The notes under the pieces: generated by a model | The model's database searches: none | What the model was told of the DNA's origin: nothing | Seen by the model: only the letters and a program-made list of their open reading frames with translations | Source: a virus | Reading direction: 5' to 3' (one strand) | Virus genome (UHGV): UHGV-2113617 | DNA: 64,000 nucleotides | Shown: positions 35,042 through 35,497 of the stretch, in pieces | How positions within the stretch are numbered: position 1 is the first letter of the stretch | Layout: each line of letters opens with the position of its first letter | Position numbers and translations under genes: made by a program

Positions 35042-35497
35042 TTATTTCAAATCATCTGCCCAATCGAGTTTAAGAGGCTCTTTATATTCACGATCTAATA
35101 CGACCGGAATTTGTACATCACCGCTAAATGATAAGGGCCCAACATTATAAGACAATGTTATATGCGGTGTGTAATCATCAAAATCATGTGTAGCACCTAG
35201 TGCCCGCGCATACATGTGTCGACAGCGCAGATATTCAGAATCTAGCACAAGTACAAGAGTCGATCCATCTTGTGTTTTCCATACTTCTAAATGTCCAGAA
35301 GAAGCTACTTCAAAACTTCCGCTTGATGGAACATACGGAACATTTACTCTTGAATAACATATGGTCGAATGAATTTTTTCTCTAGGAACTGGATTAGGAA
35401 CACGTAAAGAGCGCTGAAGTTCTTCCAGCGCATCAAGTGTTAATTCTGAAAACTTAGCTGCTACATAAAGACCCGTTGAAAAGTCTTTAAATTCCAT
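35042..35497 (-). CDS. 57B: 2H phosphoesterase; T4 gp57B/Acb1 homolog
   Basis: 151 aa with two H-x-T/S motifs (HSTI, HITL); position upstream of 57A. Confidence 0.8.

Follow-up and report, generated by a model that had tools for sequence, protein, structure and literature searches.

The product of gene 57B of bacteriophage T4 is Acb1, the founding member of its family, which was found by activity-guided fractionation as an enzyme that degrades 3'3'-cGAMP (Hobbs et al. 2022, PMC9117128). Cyclic nucleotides of this sort are the signals by which infected bacteria set off their own death. It is known that the cyclic-nucleotide-degrading activity arises about 15 minutes into T4 infection, and that T4 Acb1 cleaves cyclic di- and trinucleotides containing AMP (3'3'-cGAMP, cUA, cAAA), providing rescue from CBASS; the reaction is metal-independent, and the cut is made 3' of adenosine in two steps, via a cyclic phosphate intermediate (PMC9117128). 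The structures of the enzyme from phage FBB1 revealed a 2H-phosphoesterase fold in which the scissile phosphate sits above an HxT/HxT tetrad, and the H44A/H113A mutant of the T4 protein is inactive (PMC9117128). T4 delta-acb1 shows a replication defect of more than 300-fold on E. coli carrying CBASS and replicates normally when CBASS is absent (PMC9117128). Since acb1 adjoins ipI, which encodes an anti-GmrSD inhibitor, an anti-defence island has been argued for T4 (Hobbs et al., PMC9117128). Panoptes-type guard systems, in turn, restrict the T-even phages that carry an intact acb1 (PMC13577387).

The window analysed here, i.e., the whole stretch of 64,000 nucleotides from the virus genome UHGV-2113617, belongs to a genome of the genus Tequatrovirus and shares about 96% identity, along 24 kb, with several phages of this kind. 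The order of the genes on its minus strand (4-2-3-1-57A-acb1-internal protein-trna.4-type-trna.2-type-tRNAs with segB) matches that of T4, and the arrangement 1-57A-57B-IP-trna.x-tRNAs-segB is common to the window, to T4 and to SHFML-11, the phage most closely related in this region. The features of the locus are the following, in the direction of transcription (positions are those of the window):

Upstream of 57A, minus strand: gene 1, dNMP kinase (Pfam DNMK, E = 1e-105)
35497..35727, minus strand: gene 57A, tail-fibre assembly chaperone, an ORF of 76 codons (Pfam PF17594 GP57, E = 4.4e-47)
35042..35497, minus strand: acb1 (gene 57B), a 2H-phosphoesterase anti-CBASS nuclease of 151 aa (assigned from the ORF, Pfam PF23474, PDB 7T26 and the identity to T4)
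34989..35029, minus strand: early-promoter-like cassette GTTTAC ... GATACTAT, a direct repeat lying just 3' of acb1 and before the internal-protein gene
34732..34965, minus strand: internal virion protein of 77 aa (phrog_8111, E = 2.3e-51)
34491..34673, in minus-strand order: trna.4-type hydrophobic ORF of 60 aa (phrog_1692)
34201..34488, in minus-strand order: trna.2-type ORF of 95 aa (phrog_2023)
32825..33490, minus strand: segB-type GIY-YIG homing endonuclease, flanked within the tRNA cluster, as it is in T4, by tRNA-Arg and tRNA-Met/Ile

The acb1 ORF begins with ATG, is uninterrupted and contains its stop codon within 35042..35497. The alignment to T4 Acb1, which the preliminary description had proposed as a check of its assignment, showed that the protein of the window is 100% identical to residues 2-152 of T4 gp57B (NP_049750.1, reference NC_000866), that is, at 151 of 151 residues, the catalytic histidines included. 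A search for signs of decay with respect to T4 (frameshifts, nonsense codons and non-synonymous drift) disclosed none of them, the DNA differing from that of T4 at only six nucleotides, all six synonymous. In the T4 genome 57B and 57A are both located on the complement strand, at 73952..74410 and 74407..74649, respectively, and the annotated start of 57B reads ATGATG, giving an extra N-terminal Met, whereas the window reads ATAATG, so that the second ATG alone is usable. Both of the H-x-T/S motifs that had been noticed in the preliminary description are present, HSTI spanning residues 43-46 and HITL residues 112-115; the tetrad of the window protein is H43/T45 and H112/T114, corresponding to H44/T46/H113/T115 in T4 numbering. 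The likeness to T4 Acb1 thus embraces all 151 residues, the HxT/HxT tetrad and the slot between 57A and an internal-protein gene.

The assignment of the protein to the Acb1 type of 2H phosphoesterases, which had been made from the motifs, was borne out by the profile and structure searches. The Pfam family PF23474 ("Anti-CBASS protein Acb1") is matched with 202.7 bits (cut-off 27) and E = 2.6e-60, with all 144 positions of the profile aligned. Among the sequences of solved structures, the Acb1 of Erwinia phage FBB1 (PDB 7T26, apo; 7T27, with 3'3'-cGAMP) was retrieved with E = 4.1e-62 over residues 8-148; the full-length alignment contains a single gap of one residue, and both HxT motifs and the C-terminal lid-forming region can be aligned with the window protein, HSTI being matched by HTTI and HITL by HITL. 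The FBB1 protein is a diverged orthologue, with HTT instead of HST in the first motif and many substitutions, and at the DNA level its gene yields a match of only 138 nt (77%). Two other entries named "Anti-CBASS protein Acb1", PDB 9Q2G and 9Q2Y, give a weak alignment that spans the first and the second His motifs, with marginal values (E = 0.004 and 0.03), and are far more distant than the T4 and FBB1 proteins. Given the Pfam, PDB and T4 matches, the agreement of the two motifs is far beyond what chance would give, and no evidence against the identification as Acb1 was found. Two ORFs on the plus strand lie antisense inside acb1 (35200..35385, 61 aa, and 35214..35357, 47 aa); they were set aside as mechanical, being opposite to a strongly conserved coding sequence. 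Judged from its sequence, 35042..35497 is a real and intact Acb1 gene (57B) of a T4-like (Tequatrovirus) phage, already known and not a variant, and the window does harbor a known anti-defence gene, as had been proposed.

Because the protein has the same sequence as T4 Acb1, what has been published on the T4 enzyme applies to it directly; its substrate range, mechanism and in vivo anti-CBASS effect are in this way predicted from experiments on T4. During infection the enzyme would hydrolyse the 3'-5' phosphodiester bond located 3' of adenosine in CBASS messengers, with 3'3'-cGAMP, cUA, cAAA and cAAG as the substrates expected from the identity. The reaction would be metal-independent and would proceed in two steps through a 2',3'-cyclic phosphate intermediate, with H43/T45 and H112/T114 likely acting as the acid-base tetrad. 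Once the signal had been linearised, the CBASS effectors would stay inactive, abortive death would not occur and the phage could finish its cycle. An intact acb1 predicts resistance to CBASS systems whose signals are 3'-5' cyclic di- and trinucleotides containing AMP, and possibly also to type III CRISPR signalling based on cA3, together with sensitivity to Panoptes guard systems of types I and II, the latter prediction being drawn from PMC13577387. The explanation of the locus as an anti-CBASS acb1 is considered, as a whole, to be very nearly certain: the integrity of the gene, its identity, its motifs and its synteny are direct observations, and the catalysis and the in vivo effect would follow from the identity to the T4 protein. 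The finding places in this phage what is expected to be a functional, fully characterised anti-CBASS gene and brings nothing new to biology.

A different primary function could be imagined on the basis of the names that the orthologues bear in databases. The label "RNA ligase" is attached to Acb1 orthologues in RefSeq (57B of T4, NC_000866, and BH804_gp263 of SHFML-11) and in phrog_755, and a cluster of tRNA genes lies about 1 kb from acb1; the protein might then be an RNA-acting 2H enzyme (a LigT-like 2'-5' RNA ligase or a cyclic phosphodiesterase) serving the repair or processing of RNA or tRNA. The 2H fold, which is common to LigT-type enzymes, also counts for such a role. However, Acb1 is the sole Pfam family matched at E <= 0.1, with neither LigT nor 2_5_RNA_ligase among the matches, and the label itself stems from database product names only. 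Moreover, the identical T4 protein was purified as an activity degrading cyclic oligonucleotides, the phenotype of T4 delta-acb1 is confined to the presence of CBASS, and no ligase activity is found among the results of the study that described the enzyme (PMC9117128). A primary function in RNA metabolism is therefore regarded as very improbable.

Even less credit is given to the idea that acb1 is present in this phage in an inactivated or decaying form, for instance following selection of the Panoptes type. Such a fate has precedents among T-even phages, where natural and selected mutations disrupting acb1 occur; as an example, phage Bas43 bears a natural nonsense mutation in the gene, and Panoptes selects for the loss of acb1 (PMC13577387). 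In the window, instead, the ORF is uninterrupted, the protein equals the active T4 Acb1 with silent substitutions only, and the upstream context (57A, with the overlapping stop and start) has been kept. Since the coding sequence is intact and T4-identical at the protein level, inactivation is excluded at the coding level, a regulatory defect being the only form left to it.

The distribution of the gene agrees with that expected for an ordinary component of a T4-like phage. It was detected in 561 phage records, in 503 of which the nucleotide identity is at least 95%, and almost all of the records bearing it are T4-like phages of Escherichia, Shigella, Yersinia or Salmonella; acb1 is near-universal in Tequatrovirus. 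Its annotation is heterogeneous: besides the label discussed above, many GenBank records report a "hypothetical protein", and only a few records use the name "anti-CBASS protein Acb1". As a consequence of the RefSeq and PHROGs label, an automated annotation of the window would probably mislabel acb1.

The relationship between acb1 and 57A deserves some attention, since 57B had been placed directly upstream of 57A, as in T4. The adjacency holds, and yet both genes lie on the minus strand and 57B is transcriptionally downstream, "upstream" being true in plus-strand coordinates only. The last base of the 57A stop codon TAA is at once the first of the acb1 start codon ATG (TAATG), whereas in T4 the two genes overlap by four nucleotides (ATGA) and 57B has the extra ATG codon. 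In addition, 57A of the window is shorter than its T4 counterpart by 12 nt (four codons) near the 3' end; the same 231-bp form is found in SHFML-11. The TAATG overlap suggests that 57A and acb1 might be translationally coupled and co-expressed. The T4 late-promoter consensus TATAAATA occurs within gene 1, at positions 36094-36101 of the minus strand, about 370 nt upstream of 57A. This element could drive late transcription of 57A-acb1 and is offered as a lead only; the motif was counted 17 times in the window versus 10.6 expected, with no significant enrichment.

The preliminary description had also read the genes around acb1 as an anti-defence neighbourhood, which is supported only in part: it may hold for one flank, that of the internal-protein gene, and the other consists of the core structural and metabolic genes 57A, 1, 3, 2 and 4. 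In the core flank (57A, dNMP kinase, gp3, gp2 and gp4) gp2 alone is related to defence according to its annotation, shielding the DNA ends from exonuclease V. On the opposite side, the protein encoded at 34732..34965 displays the N-terminal peptide MKTFKEFINE, of the capsid-targeting type typical of T4 internal proteins, and is 95% identical to the "internal virion protein" of SHFML-11. In T4 the same slot beside acb1 is occupied by ipI, whose product, the injected anti-GmrSD inhibitor IPI, has in common with the window protein the targeting-type N-terminus (MKTF.EF). The two proteins differ in length (95 aa in T4, 77 aa in the window) and are 27% identical, the shared residues falling mainly in the N-terminal targeting peptide. 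At this level of identity the neighbour was rejected as T4 ipI and taken for another member of the internal-protein family, to which anti-GmrSD activity cannot be ascribed. The internal protein is a plausible candidate for an injected anti-restriction protein with an anti-defence role. Beyond its gene there are two small ORFs, those matching phrog_1692 and phrog_2023.

Between these genes there is a direct repeat of 41 nt, present in two copies, one at 34691-34731, before the trna.4-type ORF, and the other at 34989-35029, before the internal-protein gene, the latter copy delimiting acb1 on its 3' side. The copies carry, as minus-strand elements, the early-promoter-like motifs GTTTAC ... GATACTATTACC, and the copy next to acb1, which is kept in both SHFML-11 and T4, includes a sigma-70-like site (TTTACA-17-TACTAT with TG) at 35028..35000 of the minus strand. 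Promoter-like sites number 13 versus 11.3 in shuffled sequence and terminators 1 versus 1.3, so there is no excess of either, and any single site can be taken as no more than a hint; 3' of acb1, no terminator-like sequence was found. The copy at 34691-34731 forms a perfect stem-loop of 12 bp (-16.4 kcal/mol, z = -3.0), whereas the one beside acb1 has lost one arm of the stem (z = -1.3). In their general form the repeats are similar to the PeSL (promoter-early-stem-loop) cassettes of T4-type phages, as these are described in PMC2839356 and PMC4122927, where it is proposed that modules of T4-type genomes are shuffled by means of them.

The comparison with SHFML-11 shows that two segments are missing from the window: one of about 400 bp, containing a trna.3 homologue (window position about 34490; SHFML-11 1790-2190), and one of about 330 bp, containing a second internal-protein gene (window position about 35040; SHFML-11 2700-3075). 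The deletion of about 330 bp joins two copies of the repeated sequence formed by the acb1 3' end and the promoter, which suggests that it might have arisen by recombination between cassettes. The missing segments are consistent with the idea of cassette shuffling, and acb1 can therefore be regarded as the stable border of an internal-protein locus that is itself hyperplastic. In a more specific scenario, the protein at 34732..34965 would be an injected inhibitor directed against a restriction or defence system of the host different from GmrSD, and acb1 would form the fixed border of an anti-defence locus in which cassettes are shuffled, its content being swapped via the repeats at 34691-34731 and 34989-35029; this remains a tentative proposal, which we would rather bet against than for.

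The two small ORFs are followed by the tRNA cluster, which consists of seven tRNA genes, followed by segB and then by tRNA-Arg. An Rfam scan of positions 31500-37500 returned eight tRNAs only, and nothing in or beside acb1. The tRNA gene at 33532-33603 (minus strand) was called by ARAGORN as tRNA-Met (anticodon CAT), whereas its T4 counterpart is annotated as tRNA-Ile. A tRNA with this anticodon presumably fits a tRNA-Ile in which a modified C reads Ile codons.
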